A program made the translations under genes and the position numbers. A stretch of 35,984 nucleotides of DNA from a phage. The stretch is from the sequence record PX516787.1. The stretch is one strand, 5' to 3'. Within the stretch, counting starts at the first letter, position 1. Each line of letters starts with the position of its first letter. The notes below the pieces were generated by a model that saw only the letters and a list, made by a program, of their open reading frames with translations, did not search any database and was not told the origin of the DNA. This document shows positions 1 through 35,888 of this stretch, piece after piece.

Positions 1-1779
1 CTATCCAGGCACTTTCTGGATACAGGCCCAACATTAATCATGCACAACGGCGCAACCTTTGACTTTGAAGCACTGAGGTTCCTTGGCTACGACGTTTCAA
101 AATGTACCTTAATTGATACTTTGTTTATCAGTTGGTATCTGCAACCTCGTCGTGTTAAGCACGGCTTAGAAGGTTACGGCGAAGAGTTTGGTGTGCCAAA
201 ACCAGTCATTGATGATTGGGAAAATCAAACTCAAGAAGAATACAACCATCGTGTGATGGAAGACTGCAAGATTCAGTTGAAGCTGTGGGAACAGCAATAC
301 ATTCAACTCTTGAAGATTTATAAATCTCCTAGCGAAGTTAAGCGCTTCATTGAATACCTGATGACAAAAGCTCGTCAACAGGTTATTCAACAACGTACTC
401 GCTGGAAGCTGAACATTGAGAAGGCATTGGCATTTAAGGCCAAGCTGGAGCCAATGATTAAAGAGAAGACGGACGCATTGGAAGCATCAATGCCACGTAT
501 TCCAGAATATGTTATCAAAACCCGTCCAGCTAAATGCCACAAGTTGAACGGACAATTATCTTCCGCTGGCATCAAGTGGAAAGCTATTTGTGATGCAAAC
601 GGTTTGGACTGGAAAGACCCAGACCTGGCTATCAAGGTTCTTAAAGGTTATAAGAATCCTAACGCTGGTTCTCATGTGCAAATTAAAGACTGGTTGTTCA
701 GCTTAGGTTGGGAACCGGAAACCTTTAAGTTTGACCGTAACAAGGAAACAGGTGAAACTCGCCAGATTCCACAAATCACTGTGAAGGATGAAGATGGCAA
801 TCCTGAAATATGTCCGAGCTTGCATAAGCTGGCGGAAAGAAACCCCGACTCTGGTATTCAACATCTTATTGGGATGGGCGTGTATAAACACCGTCTGTCT
901 GTTGTTAATGGCTTCCTTCGCGACGTCGATGAAGATGGGTTCCTTACTGCACGATGCGGTGGCCTTACCAATACTTTACGCCTTAAACATCGCGAACTTG
1001 TTAACCTCCCTTCTATTCGTGTATTTGGCGGTGAAGAACTGCGTTCAATGTTGGAAGCGTGGCGCGAAGACTACGAACAGCTAGGCTCTGACTTGTGTTC
1101 TCTGGAAGACCGTTGTAAACACCACTTCCAGTGGATGTATGACCCTGAATACGTTAAGAAGCAGTTGGCACCAGACTATGATGCTCACCTTGCAATCGGC
1201 GTAATTGGTGGATTTATTACTGAACAAGAGTCTCAGGACCACAAGGACGGAATTAAGAAGTGTAAACAACGTCCAATGTTTAAGACTACAAACTATGCTT
1301 GTCAGTATGGTGCTGGTGTGCCGACTGTAGCTCGTTCTGCTGGCTGTGACCAGACTACTGCTGCACGACTGCATAAAGCATATTGGGACTTGAACTGGTC
1401 TATTAAAGAGATTGCTGCAAACACCAAAGTTATCACAGTCGACGGTCAGATGTGGCAACAGAATCCAGTAAACAAATTCTGGTATTCATTGCGTACAGAG
1501 AAAGACCGCTTCTCCACATTGTGTCAGGGTACTGGTGCATATGTGTTTGATGTTTGGTGTAACAACATCATTGCAATTTGTAATGAACGTTGGGGCTGTG
1601 ACCCACTTCTGTCCGGGCAATTCCACGATGAATTGATTCTCCAAGTTAAGAAAGGTTTCCGCGATTTGTGGACGGACTTGCTTAATGAGGCAATGGACCG
1701 AACCAACAAAGAACTTAAACTTAACCGCGATTGTGCATGTGATGTACAGTTCGGTGATAACTACGCGGAGATTCACTAA
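1..1779 (+). CDS. DNA polymerase, family A (Pol I / T7 gp5-like), 5'-truncated by the window edge
   Basis: The reading frame is open from nt 1 with no stop before the listed ATG at 40, so the gene continues upstream. IMHNGATFDFEAL resembles the Exo II motif of the PolA 3'-5' exonuclease domain; KTTNYACQYGAG resembles PolA motif B; QFHDELIL resembles motif C (HDE). Confidence 0.85.
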   Translation, partial: LSRHFLDTGPTLIMHNGATFDFEALRFLGYDVSKCTLIDTLFISWYLQPRRVKHGLEGYGEEFGVPKPVIDDWENQTQEEYNHRVMEDCKIQLKLWEQQYIQLLKIYKSPSEVKRFIEYLMTKARQQVIQQRTRWKLNIEKALAFKAKLEPMIKEKTDALEASMPRIPEYVIKTRPAKCHKLNGQLSSAGIKWKAICDANGLDWKDPDLAIKVLKGYKNPNAGSHVQIKDWLFSLGWEPETFKFDRNKETGETRQIPQITVKDEDGNPEICPSLHKLAERNPDSGIQHLIGMGVYKHRLSVVNGFLRDVDEDGFLTARCGGLTNTLRLKHRELVNLPSIRVFGGEELRSMLEAWREDYEQLGSDLCSLEDRCKHHFQWMYDPEYVKKQLAPDYDAHLAIGVIGGFITEQESQDHKDGIKKCKQRPMFKTTNYACQYGAGVPTVARSAGCDQTTAARLHKAYWDLNWSIKEIAANTKVITVDGQMWQQNPVNKFWYSLRTEKDRFSTLCQGTGAYVFDVWCNNIIAICNERWGCDPLLSGQFHDELILQVKKGFRDLWTDLLNEAMDRTNKELKLNRDCACDVQFGDNYAEIH

Positions 1780-2946: not shown

Positions 2947-3969
2947 GTGAGTAAGAAACGAGTTTTGTTGCTGGTTGACGGCGACATGGTTGCATTCAGT
3001 CACTGTGCTGCTGAGGAATACGGCAAAGATTCAGAAGATATTAACTTTGCTAAGATTCAAATGTCAATGGATTCCAAGATGGAATTCCTTGCGAAACGCG
3101 TGGGAGCTACAGAAGTAGTCACCTGCATTTCACCATCCAAAACATTCCGTAATGTTCTTGCCGAGAATTACAAAGGCAATCGTGATGACGTGTGGCGACC
3201 AGAAAACTTAAAGAATGCGAAAGCACATCTTATGGTTGCCTGGAATGGCGTATGGATGAAGGGTCTGGAAGCAGATGACCTTCTTGCTGTATTCGCACGT
3301 CATGAATACGAAATGACAATGGGCAAACGTAATGAGATTAAGAGCCTCAAGCGCATTGGTCCTTGCACATATGATGAAGTCTGGATTGCGTCGCTGGACA
3401 AAGACTTGCGACAAATCGGGCAGAATGGTGGTGCTGGTCCGGTAATTAAACATTACCAATGGGAACGAGAAACCCAGGGTATTGGTGAGAAGGTTGTAAC
3501 TCCGCAGGATTACGGCGAACTCAAATTAATCATCAAGGACAATGGCAAATCGAAGAAGAAAGAAGTTAAAGGCAATGGCCCTAAATTCTTCTTGCATCAA
3601 TTGCTTATTGGCGACTCAACGGATAACGTTATGGGTTGCGGAGTTCTTGAAGAAAGAATCTACAAAACTGGTGCCAAAGCTGGAGAAACTTATTTCCGTC
3701 GTGATGGTATTGGTGCAGTTGCTTCATTCGAAATGCTGGATGGTACAACCTCCTATGCAGAAGGTTTGAAGAAAGTTATTGGTGCATACATTATGCGCTT
3801 CGGAGATGGTTGGGAACAAGAGCTACTCAAAGTGGGCCGTCTTGTTTACATGCACCATCAAATTGAAAAGGGTAATTGTGTTCGCTTGTGGCATTACAAG
3901 AACATTAACGAATACTTTGACCTTAAAGAGAATCGTATCCTCACTCAAGAAGAGTACCTCCAGAAATAA
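2947..3969 (+). CDS. 5'-3' exonuclease / flap endonuclease (T5 D15 / T7 gp6-like)
   Basis: VLLLVDGDMVAF matches the N-terminal acidic motif of FEN / 5'-3' exonucleases. The ORF track starts at ATG 2908, but that ATG lies inside the upstream hairpin and has no SD; the in-frame GTG at 2947 has GGAG 9 nt upstream, so it is preferred. Confidence 0.75.
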   Translation: MSKKRVLLLVDGDMVAFSHCAAEEYGKDSEDINFAKIQMSMDSKMEFLAKRVGATEVVTCISPSKTFRNVLAENYKGNRDDVWRPENLKNAKAHLMVAWNGVWMKGLEADDLLAVFARHEYEMTMGKRNEIKSLKRIGPCTYDEVWIASLDKDLRQIGQNGGAGPVIKHYQWERETQGIGEKVVTPQDYGELKLIIKDNGKSKKKEVKGNGPKFFLHQLLIGDSTDNVMGCGVLEERIYKTGAKAGETYFRRDGIGAVASFEMLDGTTSYAEGLKKVIGAYIMRFGDGWEQELLKVGRLVYMHHQIEKGNCVRLWHYKNINEYFDLKENRILTQEEYLQK

Positions 3970-5871: not shown

Positions 5872-6393
5872 ATGTCTTGTATGACCCAAGTTGTTGCTGT
5901 AAAGCGAGTGCATCCTAATGCGAAATTACCTGTGTACGCTACTGTTGGCGCTGCTGCTGCTGACGTTTGCACTATCTCCGATAGCACTGTTGTTATCAAT
6001 CCCGGCTGCTCTGCTGTTTTCGATACTGGCCTCCAGTTCGAGGTTCCAGTTGGATACGAACTCAAAGTATATAGCCGTTCTGGTCATGGCTTTAAGTCTG
6101 GCATTCGCCTGGCAAACTGCACAGGAATTCTGGACTCCGATTATCGTGGCAATCTTATGGTTAAGTTGCACAATGACTCGGACACAGCCTTTGTGGTTCA
6201 GCCAGGTGAACGTATTTGTCAAGTGCAAGTTAGTAAAGCTACTCAACACCATTTCGTTGAAGTTGACCGCTTGAATGCAACTGGTCGTGGTGAAGGTGGA
6301 TTTGGCTCAACTGGTCGTGTGGAACTTGGTCAACACGAAAGACCGCATATTCCAGAAGGCTTGACAGTCCACAATCACAGCATTACCAAGTAG
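5872..6393 (+). CDS. dut: dUTP diphosphatase (dUTPase)
   Basis: The five dUTPase motifs are all visible: GAAAADV, YSRSGHG, GILDSDYRGNLMV, GERICQVQV and RGEGGFGSTGR. Confidence 0.9.
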   Translation: MSCMTQVVAVKRVHPNAKLPVYATVGAAAADVCTISDSTVVINPGCSAVFDTGLQFEVPVGYELKVYSRSGHGFKSGIRLANCTGILDSDYRGNLMVKLHNDSDTAFVVQPGERICQVQVSKATQHHFVEVDRLNATGRGEGGFGSTGRVELGQHERPHIPEGLTVHNHSITK

Positions 6394-9256: not shown

Positions 9257-10572
9257 TGACTTCCAAGAAGAAAAACAATCTTTCTGTTAAAGTTGCAGAT
9301 GGGTTAGAAAACCTTGTAACGGGGTTGGGCGGTCAGGCAGATAAGTCCACTTTTAACCAGTGGACTTTCTCAAACAAGAACGCGAACTATCGCGAACTTA
9401 TGAACCGCTTCCGTGAGGATTGGGTTGCACAGAAAGTGTGCACCGTCATTCCTCAAGACATGACGCGCAAGTGGCGACATATTGATAGTGAAGAAGGACG
9501 CAAAGCGGATAAGAAACTTCGTATTCGTAAGCTGTTCCGTGAGGCATATCAATGGGCCAGATTGTATGGTACTTCATTTGTTCTGCTCGACCTGAAAGGT
9601 ACGGGCAAACTTGATACACCATTGCGACTGGATAACTTGAAGACTGGATGTATTAAATCCATGAGAGTTATTGACCGCTCACGCTTATTTGCCGCAGGGA
9701 CTATGGTTCTGGACCCTTTGAGTCCTCACTATGGTTTGCCAGAGTATTATACTTTGGCTGGGTATCCCGGCTATATCCACTACACTCGTTTCCTTCGGTT
9801 CGAGGGTACTGAACTACCGCTGTTCGAATTCCAACGCAACATGTGGTATTCCGATTCGGTACTTATTCCACTGCTGAAAACGATTGACCAATTCTACACA
9901 ACTGCTGCCGCTGCCGCCAGCCTCGCCCAAGAAGCCACCATTGATGTGGTAACTGTCGAAGGCTTACAATCTTTGCTTACATCACCGGAAGGTGAAGCTG
10001 CTGTGATGAAGCGCTTCAAACTTATGAAGCTGGCAAAGAGTATTTATAATGTCTTAATTCTCGACAATACTGAGAAGTATGACACCAAGTCAATTGCACT
10101 ATCTGGTGTGAAAGACTTGATTTGGGAATACTTGAAGATAGTTGCTGCCGCAGTTGGTATTCCGGCTACACGTTTCCTTTCTGCATCTCCAGACGGTATG
10201 AATGCTACGGGCGAATCTGACCTCGTAAACTATATCGACTTGTTGACAGGCTTGCAGACTTCTGTGTTCGACCCTCGTTTAGATGTGGTAGACAAGATTG
10301 TCCAAGCGCACTTTGGCATTGAAGAGTATAGCTACGAATGGCTAGACATCTTCCCTGAATCCAACGTTGAGAAAGCGAAGCGAGCTAAAGATTTGGCATT
10401 TGCTGTTGACCTGCTGGTTAACAACGGTACTATTACTACCGAAGTTGCAAACGAAGTCATGTTCCATTCGGGCGTGTTCGGAACTTGTGACCTTGGCAAG
10501 CCAAATCCTAATCCTCCTAACATCCAAAAGGGTAACGCAAGTGAAGCAAAGCCAAAACCTGGTTCAGCTTAA
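9256..10572 (+). CDS. putative portal protein
   Basis: 438 aa, immediately downstream of the large terminase and upstream of the scaffold and capsid genes. AAGGA 7 nt upstream of the ATG. Call is by position and size. Confidence 0.55.
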   Translation: MTSKKKNNLSVKVADGLENLVTGLGGQADKSTFNQWTFSNKNANYRELMNRFREDWVAQKVCTVIPQDMTRKWRHIDSEEGRKADKKLRIRKLFREAYQWARLYGTSFVLLDLKGTGKLDTPLRLDNLKTGCIKSMRVIDRSRLFAAGTMVLDPLSPHYGLPEYYTLAGYPGYIHYTRFLRFEGTELPLFEFQRNMWYSDSVLIPLLKTIDQFYTTAAAAASLAQEATIDVVTVEGLQSLLTSPEGEAAVMKRFKLMKLAKSIYNVLILDNTEKYDTKSIALSGVKDLIWEYLKIVAAAVGIPATRFLSASPDGMNATGESDLVNYIDLLTGLQTSVFDPRLDVVDKIVQAHFGIEEYSYEWLDIFPESNVEKAKRAKDLAFAVDLLVNNGTITTEVANEVMFHSGVFGTCDLGKPNPNPPNIQKGNASEAKPKPGSA

Positions 10573-11605
10573 CGACGAAGATACCGTGAATGAAGTAGTT
10601 TTGTTGAACGACAAGGCTACTTTGACGACCCGTCGTTTACGTGACTCTGGCGAAATGATTGCAGAATGCACCATCGCTCGTACTGGCATCATGCTGTATA
10701 AAGCAAAAGAACTTGGTGAAATCGCAAAACATCTGGACCCAGAATCTATTTGCCGTGTTCGTACCAAGCCGGAAGTATTATTTGACGAAGCAACCATTGA
10801 AGGTTGTCGCTCAATTCCGGTTACTATCGGCCATCCGAAAAATGATGTTAACATCAAGAACAACAAAGAACTCCAGAAAGGGTTCATCGAAGGGCGTCCA
10901 GTTGCAGACGGTTCTTTCTTGGCTGCATCAATCGTTTTGAATGACGAGCAAGCTATTCGATTAGTTGATTCTGGTGTTGACCAAATCTCCTTGGGCCATA
11001 ATGCTGAACTGGCTGTATCAGAAGATGATGAAGCCGACTTCGATAAAGTTCGCATTATTCCTAATCATGCTGCAATTGTTGTTCGTGGTCGCGCTCAGAC
11101 TACGCGCATTGGCGACTCTGGCGAAGAGATTGCCATTGTTGATAAGGCAACCTTTGACGTTGTTGAAGCAGAGCGTGATGCAGCGCTTGACAAGATTAGT
11201 GTCCTTGAACAGAAACTTGCTGATGCAGAAACTGCACGACTATCCGATGAAGCTATTCAGGCTGAGGTAGACAAACGTGTAGTTGCTCGTACAGCATTGC
11301 TTGTTGATGTGGCCCGTCTTGGCGACGAGTTCTCCAACCTCGATTTCTCCGGCAAGACCGATGCAGAAATTAAGTTGGCTGTAGTTAATAAATTGCATGA
11401 CAAGGATTTCAGCGATAAGAGCGAAGACTATATCTCCGCCCGTTTCGATGCAGCTCTTGAAGATTGCGATTCCATTACTTTGGGAGATGCCCTGAATCAG
11501 TCTATGCAATTCTCTGCTAAGAAAGATTCAGAAGCTCGTAAACCTAAAGTTTCTATTTCCGAAGAAGCTAACAAACGTCGTTTAGAACGCTTCAACTCTT
11601 TATAA
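10541..11605 (+). CDS. putative prohead protease / scaffolding protein
   Basis: Lies between the portal and capsid genes. The C-terminal half is acidic and helical (AERDAALDKISVLEQKLADAETARL...), as expected for a scaffold. The listed ATG at 10367 overlaps the portal by about 200 nt; in-frame GTG 10541, GTG 10586 or ATG 10655 are more likely. Start is uncertain. Confidence 0.45.
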   Translation: MKQSQNLVQLNDEDTVNEVVLLNDKATLTTRRLRDSGEMIAECTIARTGIMLYKAKELGEIAKHLDPESICRVRTKPEVLFDEATIEGCRSIPVTIGHPKNDVNIKNNKELQKGFIEGRPVADGSFLAASIVLNDEQAIRLVDSGVDQISLGHNAELAVSEDDEADFDKVRIIPNHAAIVVRGRAQTTRIGDSGEEIAIVDKATFDVVEAERDAALDKISVLEQKLADAETARLSDEAIQAEVDKRVVARTALLVDVARLGDEFSNLDFSGKTDAEIKLAVVNKLHDKDFSDKSEDYISARFDAALEDCDSITLGDALNQSMQFSAKKDSEARKPKVSISEEANKRRLERFNSL

Positions 11606-31595: not shown

Positions 31596-32150
31596 ATGTT
31601 ATCATTCAAAGTCCTTGCACTTCTGACAGCTTTAGTTCACATCAACGCCCCAGCTTCGGTTGGGGCAGTGAATTCTGCTATTACAGATTTTGCAAGTCAC
31701 TCTTATTTAAATGGAAGTCTGAAACTATCTTCTTCACAACGCAAAGAGCTAGAATGCTACACTAAAGTTATCTGGTATGAAGCTCGCGGAGAAGACAAAC
31801 ATGGAAAGATTCTGGTAGCTAATGTCGTCCGTAATAGAACTAAGTTCGGGAAGCCATTCGCTAACACCGTTTGTGATGTTGTCTATCAACGCAACCAATT
31901 TGCATGGACACGAGAAGCAAAGAAGAAGAATGCTCAATGGAAGCATGTAGCAAAGGTTAATTATGCCACAGAACAACAACAAGTTCTGGACACTATTAAC
32001 GTTGCAATCTCTTTTGTATTATTTAATCAACCCTCTGTCACCAAAGCAACCCACTTTTGTACAGCATCGGAGAAGTGCAACTTCAAGAATGTTAAAGGTT
32101 TGGGACGTTATGGTGGCCATAAATTCTATGAGTATCTAGGAAATCTGTAA
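31596..32150 (+). CDS. endolysin, SleB-type cell wall hydrolase with N-terminal signal peptide / signal-anchor
   Basis: N-terminus [24 protein letters not shown] looks like a signal peptide; [22 protein letters not shown] ... [11 protein letters not shown] matches the SleB (Hydrolase_2) core. AAGGA 5 nt upstream of the ATG. Confidence 0.8.
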
Positions 32151-33250
32151 TGGCTTACACTACCTTTTCACAAACCAAGAATAACCAACTATTAGAGCCA
32201 ATGTTCTTTGGTCAGAACGTTAACGTTGCTCGATATGACCAACAGAAGTACAGCATCTTCGAGAAGTTAATCGAGAAGCAGTTATCTTTCTTTTGGCGAC
32301 CTGAGGAGGTTGATGTTAGCCAGGACCGAATTGACTATGCTGGTCTGCCTGAATGCGAGAAGCACATCTTCACAAGCAATTTACGATACCAAATCCTGCT
32401 TGATTCCATTCAGGGACGTGGACCAACTACAGTTTTGCTGCCAATTGTGAGCATTCCTGAGCTGGAAACTTGGATTGAAACTTGGTCATTCTCAGAGACA
32501 ATTCACTCTCGTTCTTACACGCATATTATTCGTAATATCGTGACAGACCCTAGCGTAATTTTCGATGAAATTGTGGAGAATGAGCACATCAAAATGCGTG
32601 CAATCGGCATCTCCCAATATTATGACGAGCTTCAACATCTGACTTCCATGTGGCATCTGCATGAAGATAAAGTTTCTCTTCGTGAGCTTAAGAAGAAGCT
32701 ATATTTATGCCTCATGTCCATCAATGCACTGGAAGCAATCCGCTTCTATGTTAGCTTTGCTTGCTCATTTGCCTTCGCTGAACGTAAGTTAATGGAAGGA
32801 AATGCCAAGATTATTCGCTTAATTGCTCGTGATGAAGCACTCCATTTGACCGGAACTCAACACATGCTGAACCTTCTTGCAAGCGGTGTTGATGACCCAG
32901 AAATGGCAGAAATTGCTAAAGAATGCCGTCAAGAATGCCAACTCATGTTCGAAAATGTGGCCCAACAAGAGAAGGATTGGGCTGATTATTTGTTCAAAGA
33001 TGGCTCAATGATTGGCTTAAACAAGCAAATTCTATGCGGATATGTGGAATATATCACGAATATTCGTATGCAAGCAGTTGGATTGGATGCTCCATTCAAA
33101 GGTGCTACTAACCCGATTCCTTGGATTAACGCATGGTTGAATTCGGATGCTGTACAAGTTGCTCCACAGGAAACGGAGATTAGTTCGTACCTTGTCGGGC
33201 AGATTGACTCCGAAGTGGATACCAATGCCCTGGGCGGATTTGAGCTGTAA
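32150..33250 (+). CDS. nrdB: ribonucleotide reductase class Ia beta subunit
   Basis: Full-length (366 aa), with the di-iron ligand regions ([39 protein letters not shown]). From memory it is near-collinear with enterobacterial NrdB, apart from an apparent internal deletion of about 10 aa near [13 protein letters not shown]. Confidence 0.95.
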
Positions 33251-33398
33251 CGATTATATGTGAGAAGAGATTCGATGCGTTAGCGTCGTTTCTCTTTGAG
33301 CTAGGATAAAACAAGTAAATTAAATATCTATTTATTCCCAATATTGCTACAATATTAAGAGTAATATTAGGAATGCGTAAAGTTAAAACCAAATGATA

Positions 33399-33471
33399 CA
33401 TGGTCGGTCAACTGTACCTGGATAGAAATTCGTTCATGGTCGGTCAGCTGTATCTAGACGAAATTTGTTCG
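33399..33471 (+). repeat. tandem direct repeat, two copies of about 36 nt (CATGGTCGGTCARCTGTAYCT...)
   Basis: Copy 1 at 33399-33434 and copy 2 at 33435-33471, roughly 80% identical, read directly from the sequence. Confidence 0.7.
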
Positions 33472-33493
33472 AATGGAAAACCGACTATTAATA

Positions 33494-33518
33494 TTTTTTT
33501 TTTATAATTTTTTTTTTT
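33494..33518 (+). repeat. two homopolymeric T tracts (10 and 11 T) separated by ATAA
   Basis: T10 at 33494-33503 and T11 at 33508-33518, within an AT-rich segment flanked by AATATT palindromes. Confidence 0.8.
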
Positions 33519-33544
33519 AATTTAAATATTGCTACAGAATTAAT

Positions 33545-33607
33545 GAGACTAGAATTCGTAACAAGCTACGAGACTAGAATTGTTTCAATATTAACGAGAC
33601 TAGAATT
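33545..33607 (+). repeat. three phased direct repeats GAGACTAGAATT (iteron-like or tandem promoter-like array)
   Basis: Exact 12-mers at 33545-33556, 33570-33581 and 33596-33607, spaced 25 and 26 bp apart, each followed by a CAATATT-type element. Confidence 0.8.
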
Positions 33608-33837
33608 GTGGCAATATTATAATTTTTATTTTTGGGCCAACGGGGAGGGGAAGCCCAACGTCCTATCGGACTTAAATACGGTCCCTACTCCAACTTTTTC
33701 CTACAGCCTATCGGCTTTCAAACAACACCAAGTTAGGCGCTTCGCTTATGGGTCAAGGTCAAAGTCTCCGTGCTGTTGTAACAATGGCACAGGTTTGTGA
33801 TATTAGTTGGAAGTGAATTGTGTAATGGCTACGCTAT

Positions 33838-33843
33838 TATAAT
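33838..33843 (+). promoter_or_regulatory. candidate host sigma70 -10 element (TATAAT) upstream of the RNAP gene
   Basis: Perfect TATAAT about 40 nt upstream of the RNAP start codon. No convincing -35 hexamer at 17 +/- 1 bp (TTGTGA at 33794-33799 is too far). Confidence 0.25.
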
Positions 33844-33883
33844 CCGTTTCAGTTAAATCATACACAATCTTGGAGACTTACAA

Positions 33884-35824
33884 ATGACTACTATCACCAC
33901 TCAAACTATCAAATCCGTTGTTCCTGCTATCACTGCTCTGGTATATCGTGCCAAAGAGAAACAGAACTATATGCAGCCTCAGACTTGTGCTATTGCTGCC
34001 TTAGCCATATTCAAGATGATGACGTCTTTCACTCGTGATGACGTTGTTCCTGCCATTGCGATGGTTGAGCTGGCTTCTGCTTCTATTGCTGATGCCAACC
34101 GCTACAACAACGATTTGAAAGCAATGCACTATGTTGACCCAGCTATCAACCTCATTGGTCTGGCTAAACACTTTGGCTTCATCACCATGAACGAAGATAA
34201 GTCATTCCAACAAACTGACACATGGGTTGAACTGGTTACAACCAAAGACACAGCAGTGCCATTCACTGAGCGTGTTACATCTGAATCTCGTCGCAAGCCT
34301 TTCGTTAAAGGTGGCAAAGTTAAGCCATCCAAGACTCTGAAAGCTGCAATCGAATTCCTGCAAGATACTGAGTACCATGTGGAGACTGAGATGGTTCGCA
34401 TCATTCAGTCCATGCTTGAGCAACGTACTTATGGTGGCTTGCAGATGCCAGAAGCAATCCAGACTGAACTCCATGTTTGGAACAATGCTGTAGCAATGAT
34501 GAATCAGGACACACTGTATTCTGACTACTTTGCTGATAACCGTGGCCGTCTGTATCATGTAGCATGTGCTGGCCCTAACCCACAATCCTCTGACTTTGCT
34601 CGTTGCTTGTATTCTCACAATGTTGAGAACATCGTTAAGAAGTTTAACGAAGATGGTTCTACTACCATTGCATACAACATGTTCATGGCAGAGCTGGAAG
34701 ATATTTCTGGTGGTGAATGGTGCAGTGCTAAACGTTTAACTTATGTTGCTCAGAATCCGGCTGGTTCACTTGCTCGCATGATGAACATGCCTAAAGCTGA
34801 ACGTCCTTCCAAGCCATTCACTTATGTTCGTCTGGCTCTGGATTGGTTCAAGTTTGAGACTATAGGTGAATGCGATTCTCGTGTAGGCTTTGGCTTAGAT
34901 GCTAAATGTTCTGGTACTCAATATCTGGCATTCATTGCTGGTAACATGGAAATGGCTCGTGCTACAGGTCTGGTTGATTCTGAGACTAAAGCATCTGACC
35001 CATACCAGTTGAGTCTCCGTGAACTGTTGAAGCTGCTGGACAAGTCTTCAATGAAGCCATCTCCTGAAATCATGGACGAATTCTTGAATCCGAAATCTGG
35101 TCGTAAGTTTATCAAAACTCCGTACATGGCTATTCAATATGGTGGTGGTAAAGCTGCATTAACTGGTTCATCTGACTTTATCTCCTACATGACAGAAGCT
35201 CTCCAGATTCCTATGGAGAAAGCTGAGGCATTTGCTGAACTGTGTGTAGAAGCAATCCATAACGCATTGGGTGCTAAGATTAACATGTTCATTGAGAAAG
35301 CTGCTGAGGCTGCATACAACCGTTGTGTTGAACTTGGCAAAGAGTACATCACATACCGTCACACTGATGGTCAGGTTGTAATGAAGCCTTGCTTCCCATC
35401 TCGTGAAATCTGTGAGGCATTCAGCATTCGTGTTGACAGCCAAACTCGTGTCATCTTTGGTCAGATTCAGGAGAATAAGCCTTGGACCATTCGTGAATCC
35501 AACCCAACTAAAGAAGAATTCAAGCGTACTTTCGTTGTTAACTACATTCAAGGTATTGATGCACTGGTTGCTCGTACTGTTGCAGTTAAAGCTAAAGAAG
35601 CTGGTCTTCGTGGCTTTACTTCAATCCATGATTGTTTCCGTTGCTGTCTGGCAGATGCTCCACGTATGATGGAAGTTATTCGTGCAGCATATGTTGAAAT
35701 CTTTGTAACCAACAATCAATTCGAGAATCTGTCTAAGCAACTTGGTGGCATTCAGATGTATCATGAGAACATCGTAACCGAAGAGCTTCTGATGAGCGAA
35801 CACGCTTACTACTTCTGTCAATAA
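33884..35824 (+). CDS. single-subunit DNA-dependent RNA polymerase (T7-family), compact (646 aa)
   Basis: GLDAKCSGTQYLAF matches T7 motif A (DGSCSGIQHF); RKFIKTPYMAIQYGGG matches motif B (RSVTKRSVMTLAYGSK); FTSIHDCFRC matches motif C (IHDSFG). GGAG 7 nt upstream of the ATG. Confidence 0.85.
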   Translation: MTTITTQTIKSVVPAITALVYRAKEKQNYMQPQTCAIAALAIFKMMTSFTRDDVVPAIAMVELASASIADANRYNNDLKAMHYVDPAINLIGLAKHFGFITMNEDKSFQQTDTWVELVTTKDTAVPFTERVTSESRRKPFVKGGKVKPSKTLKAAIEFLQDTEYHVETEMVRIIQSMLEQRTYGGLQMPEAIQTELHVWNNAVAMMNQDTLYSDYFADNRGRLYHVACAGPNPQSSDFARCLYSHNVENIVKKFNEDGSTTIAYNMFMAELEDISGGEWCSAKRLTYVAQNPAGSLARMMNMPKAERPSKPFTYVRLALDWFKFETIGECDSRVGFGLDAKCSGTQYLAFIAGNMEMARATGLVDSETKASDPYQLSLRELLKLLDKSSMKPSPEIMDEFLNPKSGRKFIKTPYMAIQYGGGKAALTGSSDFISYMTEALQIPMEKAEAFAELCVEAIHNALGAKINMFIEKAAEAAYNRCVELGKEYITYRHTDGQVVMKPCFPSREICEAFSIRVDSQTRVIFGQIQENKPWTIRESNPTKEEFKRTFVVNYIQGIDALVARTVAVKAKEAGLRGFTSIHDCFRCCLADAPRMMEVIRAAYVEIFVTNNQFENLSKQLGGIQMYHENIVTEELLMSEHAYYFCQ

Positions 35825-35888
35825 CAACTAAGCGCCAAGGATGGCATTAGTTGCATGTGAATCTAATAACCAATTTGGAGACTTTATA

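Follow-up and report, generated by a model that had tools for sequence, protein, structure and literature searches.

Setting of the repeat array upstream of the RNA polymerase gene

The window, meaning the whole stretch of 35,984 nucleotides analysed here (sequence record PX516787.1), belongs to a Carltongylesvirus (Chaseviridae, Cleopatravirinae) resembling phages ST32 and phiEcoM-GJ1. A non-coding spacer of 633 bp separates the gene for the small subunit of ribonucleotide reductase (nrdB) from a gene for a single-subunit, T7-family RNA polymerase (RNAP), which is the first gene inside the terminal repeat (Table 1); the spacer is 95% identical to that of Escherichia phage ST32 and 87% identical to that of phiEcoM-GJ1. 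Within this spacer the 12-mer GAGACTAGAATT occurs in three exact copies, all on the + strand, with start-to-start distances of 25 and 26 bp, the array reading TAATGAGACTAGAATTCG at 33541-33558, then TACGAGACTAGAATTGT and then TAACGAGACTAGAATTGT. Letters and coordinates of the original prediction were thus reproduced exactly, and its description of a head-to-tail array directed toward the RNAP open reading frame, with neighbouring sites placed on roughly opposite faces of the helix by a period of 25-26 bp, is correct. It had also reported no further copies of the 12-mer, and a motif search of the window agrees: there is no fourth exact copy, and the sole match with two mismatches or fewer is an unrelated site on the minus strand, at 6126. 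Base composition predicts 0.003 copies of GAGACTAGAATT per strand of the window, and none of 300 first-order Markov randomizations of the window contained any 12-mer three times within 100 bp; the triple occurrence is far beyond chance.

The full repeat unit is longer than 12 nt, at approximately 26 bp, and its information is concentrated in GAGACT-nn-AATTG and some flanking bases; relatives vary freely at positions 7-8 of the 12-mer. Unit 3 overlaps the -35 hexamer and the spacer of a sigma70-like match. On either side of the array lies one of the two longest pure A/T runs in the 36-kb window, and the downstream run contains TATTATAAT, followed by a run of T interrupted by one conserved A. 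In the other Cleopatravirinae genera examined, too, a T(n)ATAAT(n) tract is found beside the array; the tract is upstream in the window and in Faunus, and downstream in Y2, PM1 and the metagenomic contig L077. Further upstream in the spacer are two TCGGTCAAC boxes, which also occur in Y2, PM1, 4HA13, L116, L077, Myduc, Faunus and Aeromonas phage ZPAH14; among the family members examined, every array has one or two TCGGTCRAC boxes alongside it. Between the array and the RNAP gene lies a perfect copy of a dispersed putative phage promoter motif (ATTAGTTGG-type sites), which recurs in the window at 35846 and, with 2 mismatches, at 1889.

Other features were sought in the same interval. An open reading frame of 85 aa at 33543-33800, starting inside unit 1, was rejected as non-coding, its frame being broken in relatives by insertions and deletions of 25-26-bp units and of single nucleotides. 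No Rfam family matched positions 33200-33900 at E<=1, and comparison by eye gave no convincing match in the array region to the IHF, Fis, CRP, DnaA-box, sigma54 or sigmaE consensus. In the sequence record of phage flopper, the A/T tract and the array are annotated as a repeat_region, with no function given.

Table 1. Positions of the array and of neighbouring features in the window
Feature	Position	Strand	Remarks
Ribonucleotide reductase small-subunit gene (nrdB)	32150-33250		Upstream of spacer
Two TCGGTCAAC boxes (CATGGTCGGTCAACTGTACC, CATGGTCGGTCAGCTGTATC)	33399-33458	+	36 bp apart
45-bp pure A/T tract (T10-ATAA-T11...)	33486-33530		Longest in window; directly upstream of array
Array unit 1, TTAATGAGACTAGAATTCGTAACAA	33540-33564	+	Core 33545-33556; orthologous first unit kept in 14/14 Carltongylesvirus regions
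Array unit 2, GCTACGAGACTAGAATTGTTTCAATA	33565-33590	+	Core 33570-33581; evolutionarily labile middle unit
Array unit 3, TTAACGAGACTAGAATTGTGGCAATA	33591-33616	+	Core 33596-33607; closest to genome end
Sigma70-like match, TTAACG-18-TATTAT	33591-33620	+	9/12 matches; homologue annotated in phiEcoM-GJ1
21-bp pure A/T tract	33613-33633		Second longest in window; directly downstream of array
Hairpin GTCC-TATC-GGAC	33660-33671	+	At physical left end, placed by homology
Dispersed 'putative phage promoter' motif, ATTAGTTGGAAGTGAA	33802-33817	+	82 nt upstream of RNAP start; unrelated to 12-mer
Single-subunit T7-family RNAP gene, 646 aa	33884-35824	+	Pfam RNA_pol PF00940, E=6.7e-18

Conservation of the array and location of the genome end

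Two or three units at a period of about 26 bp are present in all 14 of the Carltongylesvirus regions examined, in which core positions 7-8 are AG, CA or CG and the last unit sometimes reads TCAATCT. The middle unit has been gained, lost or decayed within the genus by insertion and deletion of whole units: it is missing in flopper, PYps23T, L092 and TH24, and degenerate (GATACT) in BSBP01. GAGACT is invariant in 42 units from 16 genomes, units having been picked by their match to GAGACT; these genomes include Erwinia phage Faunus, with two units, and the divergent contig L077, with three units that lack sigma70-like flanks. A search of IMG/VR and metagenomes for the pattern gave at least 197 matches, about 190 of which are isolated chance matches outside the family; among the matches listed, only chasevirus contigs combine the two-unit GAGACT pattern with the landmark sequences of the family.

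Equivalent arrays in other genera have other cores (GGCTC, AGATTC, GTCGTAAG and GGATTC). PM1 carries three ATATTWACGGCTC units at the equivalent place; Myduc, three AGTCGTAAG units within the same scaffold (TTAA...ATTCGTAACAAG); Y2 and L016, (G)AGATTC units with a period of approximately 13 bp; and Aeromonas phage ZPAH14, the RNAP of which is 33-34% identical, three RGGATTC units about 26 bp apart. The presence of homologous arrays with different cores in distant genera indicates that the array is an old feature of the family, with a core that is lineage-specific and homogeneous within each genome. In Y2, PM1 and 4HA13, an element related to unit 3, CGAnTCnAATT..TGTG[GAC]C, is found at approximately 70-76 nt from the mapped end, a distance that unit 3 itself has in the window; no such end-proximal element was found in Faunus. 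In Y2, PM1 and L077, the upstream units are farther away, at approximately 135-250 bp from the end. Array and end are separated in Faunus by a conserved open reading frame of 38 aa, which in 4HA13 follows a degenerate unit.

Chasevirus genomes are linear, with terminal repeats of approximately 2.6-3.2 kb (ICTV and published descriptions). Homology to four mapped genomes places the left boundary of the terminal repeat in the window at 33668/33669 to 33671/33672, the slash marking the junction here and in what follows. The records of Y2 and PM1 carry both repeats, with left boundaries ...CCTGTCG/GACTTAAT and ...CCTATCG/GGAGATAAAT, respectively, and the PhageTerm-based records of Mangalitsa and 4HA13 both start at ...TATCGGAC/TTAAATACGG. 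These four independent determinations agree within 3 nt and correspond to positions 33669-33672 of the window, inside a hairpin that has undergone double compensatory changes in three of 12 lineages (Faunus, PM1 and Myduc), with both outer base pairs kept. PYps23T is an outlier, with a published repeat of 2,339 bp, both boundaries of which fall inside a ATTAGTTGGA motif. With its left end at 33669-33672, the genome would begin 62-65 bp downstream of the end of the array (33607), leaving the array immediately beyond the terminal repeat, in DNA that is not encapsidated together with that end. It was this short distance that raised the possibility of a packaging signal, which the original prediction had not considered.

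Proposed packaging recognition and alternative functions of the array

A lineage-specific, homogeneous and genome-unique array indicates a sequence-specific binder that co-evolves with it. Three phage processes use arrays of this kind (packaging recognition, transcription control and replication initiation), of which only the first two need cis-sites in the spacer. From the repeats themselves, their conservation across the family, their lineage-specific core, their uniqueness in the genome and their nearness to the mapped end and to the A/T tracts, we infer binding by a protein and packaging as the process that it would serve: the array may be a lineage-specific binding platform for a DNA-binding protein, probably phage-encoded, with recognition during packaging as its likeliest role. 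We hold this reading tentatively, with a probability of roughly one in three, and rank promoter or operator function after packaging recognition, and origin iterons after both.

Recognition during packaging could operate as follows. The array would belong to a non-coding control module abutting the physical left end of the chasevirus genome, and the packaging or end-processing machinery would recognize the concatemer on the non-encapsidated side of the cut, like the machinery acting at SPP1 pacL or lambda cosB; a protein would bind two or three units between the two A/T tracts, presumed to be rigid and easily melted, and, once bound, would help to guide the cut to the conserved hairpin, 62-65 bp farther downstream; and because unit 3 overlaps a weak sigma70-like promoter, the bound protein might also affect entry of the host RNAP toward the phage RNAP gene. 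Packaging is supported because the arrays are kept across the family, GAGACT is invariant, the motif is unique in the genome and the end is only 62-65 bp away, and also because the covarying hairpin marks that end, A/T runs flank the array and there is a parallel in SPP1. As in pac and cosB sites, the repeats lie within about 200 bp of the cleavage site, its place here being given by homology.

The small terminase of SPP1 binds direct repeats on the non-encapsidated side, at a pac site that overlaps promoters (PMC4737164, PMC6316719), and the related phages SPP1 and SF6 have different pac repeats at the same place (PMC4737164). The chasevirus array thus resembles the pac regions of SPP1 and SF6, with their pacL boxes and small terminase G1P, in its short direct repeats close to a terminase cut (on the non-encapsidated side in SPP1), its AT-rich DNA, its overlap with a promoter and the replacement of the repeat at the same place in related phages; the R-sites of lambda cosB are likewise short direct repeats next to a terminase cut. 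Unlike SPP1 and lambda, chaseviruses have exact terminal repeats of approximately 2.6-3.2 kb rather than headful or cos ends, and the distance from array to cut varies by genus. T7 reportedly has arrays of short repeats, SRL and SRR, flanking its terminal repetition. These arrays are similar in being short direct repeats just outside a terminal repeat, in a phage with the same type of RNAP and replisome, and dissimilar in unit length, copy number and sequence.

Several observations argue against packaging: the distance from array to end varies between genera, and a small open reading frame can intervene; the candidate small terminase is not hypervariable, no binder was found and there are no satellite copies; and a period of 25-26 bp puts neighbouring sites on roughly opposite helix faces. 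The candidate small terminase, a basic protein of 109 aa encoded upstream of TerL, has no family annotation in Pfam or PHROGs and is 90% identical in 4HA13, which has no GAGACT array. In a search for the reader protein, no DNA-binding or initiator domain was detected by Pfam or PHROGs in approximately 34 small proteins of the window and phiEcoM-GJ1, many of which have no known relatives. A satellite search for the terminus module in bacterial genomes found no copy in Enterobacterales chromosomes and only chance matches in unrelated taxa.

Possible, at lower odds than packaging recognition, is a function in host transcription: unit 3 would supply the -35 hexamer and spacer of a sigma70 promoter that first transcribes the RNAP gene, and the other units would be tandem duplicates, weak auxiliary promoters or operators at which a regulator would silence it. 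The depositors of phiEcoM-GJ1 annotated the homologue of unit 3 (EF460875, 364-393) as a 'putative host (E. coli) sigma70 promoter', TTGACG...TATTAT; it is the same element, upstream of the first gene, which encodes the RNAP. A host promoter for that gene is required unless the polymerase is injected with the DNA. TTAACG-18-TATTAT is the sole + strand match in the spacer at the scan threshold, and 13 of the 14 close relatives, all from a genus of low overall divergence, retain TTRAYG-18-TATTAW; in Bp7, an insertion of 23 bp displaces unit 3 yet creates TTGCTC-18-TATAAT. A perfect TATAAT is located at 33618-33623 of the window, and in most genera a TATAAT-like box, a run of T with one conserved A and a GC stem tolerant of G.U pairs follow the array, with the look of a promoter and 5' leader.

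The strength of the match, however, is at the level of chance: the sigma70 scan found 2 sites against 2.2 expected, the match in the window has a position-weight score of 7.5 against a median best score of 9.2 in shuffled sequence, the TTGACG variant of phiEcoM-GJ1 scores 11.7 against a 95th percentile of 12.4, and sigma70 scans of 12 lineages gave none above the shuffle 95th percentile. The best-conserved bases (GAGACT and AATT) sit in the would-be spacer, where sigma70 does not read them, so that the array lacks the pattern of a promoter, in which the hexamers are conserved above the spacer across relatives. Nor do the hexamers persist in other genera: there is no sigma70-like match at the arrays of Y2, PM1 and Faunus, TTAACG/TATTAT-type hexamers are absent from those of PM1 and Y2, and L077 has only below-threshold matches with spacers of 15 bp, retaining GAGACT-nn-AnTT but not the hexamers. 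Units 1 and 2 have no usable -10 sequence (AGCTAC and TATTAA, respectively), and a promoter outside the terminal repeat would, in virion DNA, drive just one of the two copies of the RNAP gene, the one on the right. T7 has three host promoters (A1-A3) in tandem ahead of its gene 1, a functional analogue that differs in comprising separate promoters approximately 125 bp apart, whereas the chasevirus units overlap at a period of 26 bp. There may well be a host promoter at the TATTATAAT box, but such a promoter leaves the core of the repeat unexplained.

Rather unlikely is the proposal that the units are iterons for a putative phage initiator and the 45-bp A/T tract is a DNA-unwinding element, as in lambda ori and SPP1 oriL/oriR. 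The part of the original prediction that concerned iterons stands as far as the DNA is concerned: like the repeats of those origins, the units are direct repeats in one orientation, unique in the genome, lineage-specific in their core and situated beside AT-rich elements, being enclosed by the longest and second-longest A/T-only stretches of the window, and in the other Cleopatravirinae genera examined, too, A/T tracts adjoin the arrays on one side or the other. SPP1 origins consist of direct repeats plus an AT-rich unwinding element (PMC6316719). The protein that iterons call for did not emerge: the approximately 34 small proteins of the window and phiEcoM-GJ1 included no initiator-like protein detectable by Pfam or PHROGs, and the replication genes are T7-like (helicase/primase and family A polymerase). 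In T7 the origin is composed of RNAP promoters and an AT-rich segment rather than iterons, and phiEcoM-GJ1 has a candidate origin of T7 style elsewhere, at 10.5 kb, where tandem motifs 4 and 5 surround an AT-rich stretch. Moreover, there are only two or three units, and their period of 25-26 bp departs from the usual in-phase iteron spacing of approximately 22 bp. Cumulative GC skew, which rises monotonically in phiEcoM-GJ1, is uninformative on the origin.

Unlikely, but an extension of packaging recognition, is that the array, the TCGGTCAAC boxes and the covarying hairpin would together be an undescribed lineage-specific signal that defines the left boundary of the terminal repeats of approximately 3 kb in the Chaseviridae, core and reader protein co-evolving as a determinant of packaging specificity. 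Less likely than such a boundary signal is that the units are a second class of promoter for the unusually small RNAP of 646 aa.

Quite improbably, the array could be a functionless tandem duplication that arose by slippage or unequal recombination in an AT-rich spacer. Copy number does alternate between two and three, through insertion and deletion of whole units, among phages that are 85-95% identical in this region, and the middle unit of BSBP01 has decayed; but genera whose RNAPs are 64-76% identical have retained the first and last units, a similar array is present in a subfamily whose RNAP is about 34% identical, and conservation is position-specific, with GAGACT invariant, positions 7-8 free and orientation constant.

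Very unlikely, finally, is a role for the units as tandem promoters recognized by the single-subunit RNAP of the phage itself, possibly priming replication like T7 phi1.1A/B. The likeness to the T7 promoter that had suggested this reading is loose (ACGACTCACTATA versus ACGAGACTAGAATT, with GACT in common). The array lies upstream of a T7-like RNAP gene, points toward it and is followed by an A/T-rich stretch; the last unit of Faunus directly adjoins the ribosome-binding site that precedes a short, conserved open reading frame (GAGACTCAAATTGGAGAACATTATG); and the promoters of chasevirus RNAPs 'have not yet been identified' according to ICTV. We nevertheless reject T7-type promoters because the motif is found only in the array, a different sequence is dispersed and a strand of the putative specificity loop is invariant despite differing cores. 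When sought more widely, GAGACT-NN-AATT proved not to be scattered upstream of genes: neither the 36-kb window nor the first 50 kb of phiEcoM-GJ1 (52,975 bp in all) has a copy outside the array. A promoter of this type would be one sequence of about 20 bp recurring upstream of many genes, and it is a different motif that recurs in this manner, 9-10 times: the 17-mer CATTAGTTGGATGTGAA has nine annotated copies in phiEcoM-GJ1 ('putative phage promoters'), all on the + strand, most of them preceding a gene by 40-400 nt and two being inside annotated genes, plus one before the RNAP gene, where it is kept in all Cleopatravirinae genera examined.

The polymerase itself shows no clear co-variation with the array core. 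A phmmer search of PDB with the RNAP gave no match, and only a family profile reached T7 RNAP (1.6e-8), aligning residues 553-613 to T7 RNAP residues 781-842 and thereby placing a putative specificity loop at about residues 510-540. In the loop as placed by this weak profile alignment, the first strand (FSIRVD..TRVIFGQ) is invariant across lineages in which the array core switches, and the putative tip varies, tracking phylogeny and the ATTAGTTG(G/A) motif equally well.

Implications for Chaseviridae

Much of the setting was already known: near-identical genomes have been published (approximately 95% identity), a repeat_region and a putative promoter had been annotated, and direct-repeat arrays are familiar in phage control regions. 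Three points are new: the array, with a core specific to each lineage, is conserved throughout the family; it lies 62-65 bp from a terminal hairpin that covaries; and T7-type promoters are rejected. The literature searched contained no transcriptomic or footprinting work on a chasevirus and no study of its packaging. Members of the Chaseviridae are candidates for biocontrol and therapy, and none of their promoters, origin or packaging signals is known to have been established by experiment. The boxes, A/T tracts, array and hairpin, gathered in a single spacer segment of approximately 400 bp, are concrete targets for the study of early transcription, the start of replication and the formation of terminal repeats, and these conserved cis-elements could allow packaging-specific vectors or engineered phages to be constructed.

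Genome end and terminal-repeat boundaries

The physical left end of the genome, placed by homology with four independently mapped relatives that agree within 3 nt, falls inside a small hairpin, GTCC-TATC-GGAC. In Faunus, PM1 and Myduc, double compensatory changes give this stem the form TCCC...GGGA. The TATC loop recurs in another hairpin 45 nt downstream. The right terminal-repeat boundary is preceded, at a distance of approximately 85-100 bp, by a sequence that all four of the mapped genomes share, TCCTATTAT(A/C)A(A/T)GGCCC...CAAGCCGGGA. It echoes a TATTATAAT...GGGCC arrangement that precedes the left boundary by approximately 50 bp; a signal may be common to the two boundaries.

The published terminal repeat of phage PYps23T (L004/L005; 2,339 bp) has boundaries that conflict with those of Y2, PM1, Mangalitsa and 4HA13, both of them located at the identical position within the dispersed motif that is annotated as a putative phage promoter in phiEcoM-GJ1 (GJ1), namely ATTAGTTGGA/NGTGAA, with the slash marking the boundary. 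The mismatch could be due to a PCR chimera between copies of the dispersed motif; alternatively, virion DNA may carry strand nicks where this motif occurs.

Positions of sequence features in the window and in related phages (L-numbers are sequence handles)
Feature	Position	Strand	Remark
Palindrome AATATTG-cta-CAATATT	window 33340-33356		
Two boxes, CATGGTCGGTCA(A/G)CTGTA	window 33399-33422 and 33435-33458		36 bp apart
Hairpin GTCC-TATC-GGAC	window 33660-33671		holds inferred physical left genome end
Hairpin AGCC-TATC-GGCT	window 33705-33716		
Dispersed motif CATTAGTTGGATGTGAA	window 33802, 35846, 1889; nine annotated sites in GJ1 (L018)	+	
Dispersed-motif copies matching the PYps23T boundary motif	window 33802-33817 and 35846-35861		
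TTGGAGACTT ribosome-binding sites	window 33872-33878 and 35881-35887; Mangalitsa (L019) 200-206		
Shared sequence upstream of right boundary	L019 (Mangalitsa) 3120-3234; L021 3000-3120; ends of L023 and L024		
Clustered CAATATTG octamers	GJ1 (L018) 90, 2864, 3205, 3635, 4198, 4210		
Inserted segment TT(A/G)CTCACTTCG(T/C)TCG...	GJ1 (L001) about 318-340; Bp7 (L347)		after unit 1 (GJ1); after unit 3 (Bp7)
Tandem ATTAGTTGG-type motifs with A/T stretch	GJ1 (L018) 10496-10656		upstream of 370-bp non-coding region

Sequences in and around the repeat array

Every chasevirus examined, Aeromonas phage ZPAH14 among them, keeps the core of the two boxes, GTCGGTYRAC, so that the conservation of this core exceeds that of the array. 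The array units are interleaved with CAATATT half-sites, and six of the nine CAATATTG octamers of GJ1 cluster near the terminal-repeat boundary and the early non-coding region, all of them within its first 4.3 kb. The palindrome and the octamer sites resemble an operator to which a dimeric regulator would bind.

The ribosome-binding sites of early genes in Carltongylesvirus read TTGGAGACTT-N4-6-ATG and so contain the GAGACT hexamer of the array; this overlap is probably a coincidence, because the corresponding sites in other genera are TTGGAGCTT, yet Faunus retains GAGACT arrays.

Relatives carry insertions in or beside the array. Faunus (L011/L213; MKPDYKKIREGKLEMFRRFLEAKQRAEVEGRIKFKILL) and 4HA13 (L022; MKPNYVAIRKSKEAMFHRFIEAKRKAELEGKVVI) have in common a small ORF between the array and the genome end, inserted immediately after the last unit, which its ribosome-binding site abuts; this ORF is absent from the window. 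In GJ1 and Bp7, one segment of 21-23 bp is inserted within a unit after ...CAA; it may be a variant unit, or else a small segment that is mobile or recombines.

Another record with three array units, PP952070.1 (L348; 'Staphylococcus phage Pel53'), is a typical Carltongylesvirus labelled as a phage of Staphylococcus hyicus; its identity to the window is 92% in the RNA polymerase and 85% in the nrdB-to-RNA polymerase spacer. This host label looks doubtful.

RNA polymerase, candidate origin and candidate promoter

The 646-aa RNA polymerase (window 33884-35824) is unusually small and divergent among single-subunit polymerases: phmmer comparison with solved structures gave no match at E<=1e-3, and T7 RNA polymerase was reached by family profile only (E=1.6e-8), in the palm and motif C regions only.

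In GJ1, a stretch of approximately 70 nt with about 85% A/T has a ATTAGTTGG-type motif on either side, the two motifs being in tandem and annotated as promoters 4 and 5. This layout resembles the primary origin of T7 (phi1.1A/B plus an AT-rich segment), and the region is a candidate replication origin.

The phage promoter of chaseviruses is listed as unidentified by the ICTV. The dispersed motif CATTAGTTGGATGTGAA is located mainly upstream of genes and is kept across genera. The G or A at its ninth base covaries with a residue at the tip of the putative specificity loop of the RNA polymerase (N versus G or A), L015 being the one exception, and this covariation weakly supports the motif as the real phage promoter.
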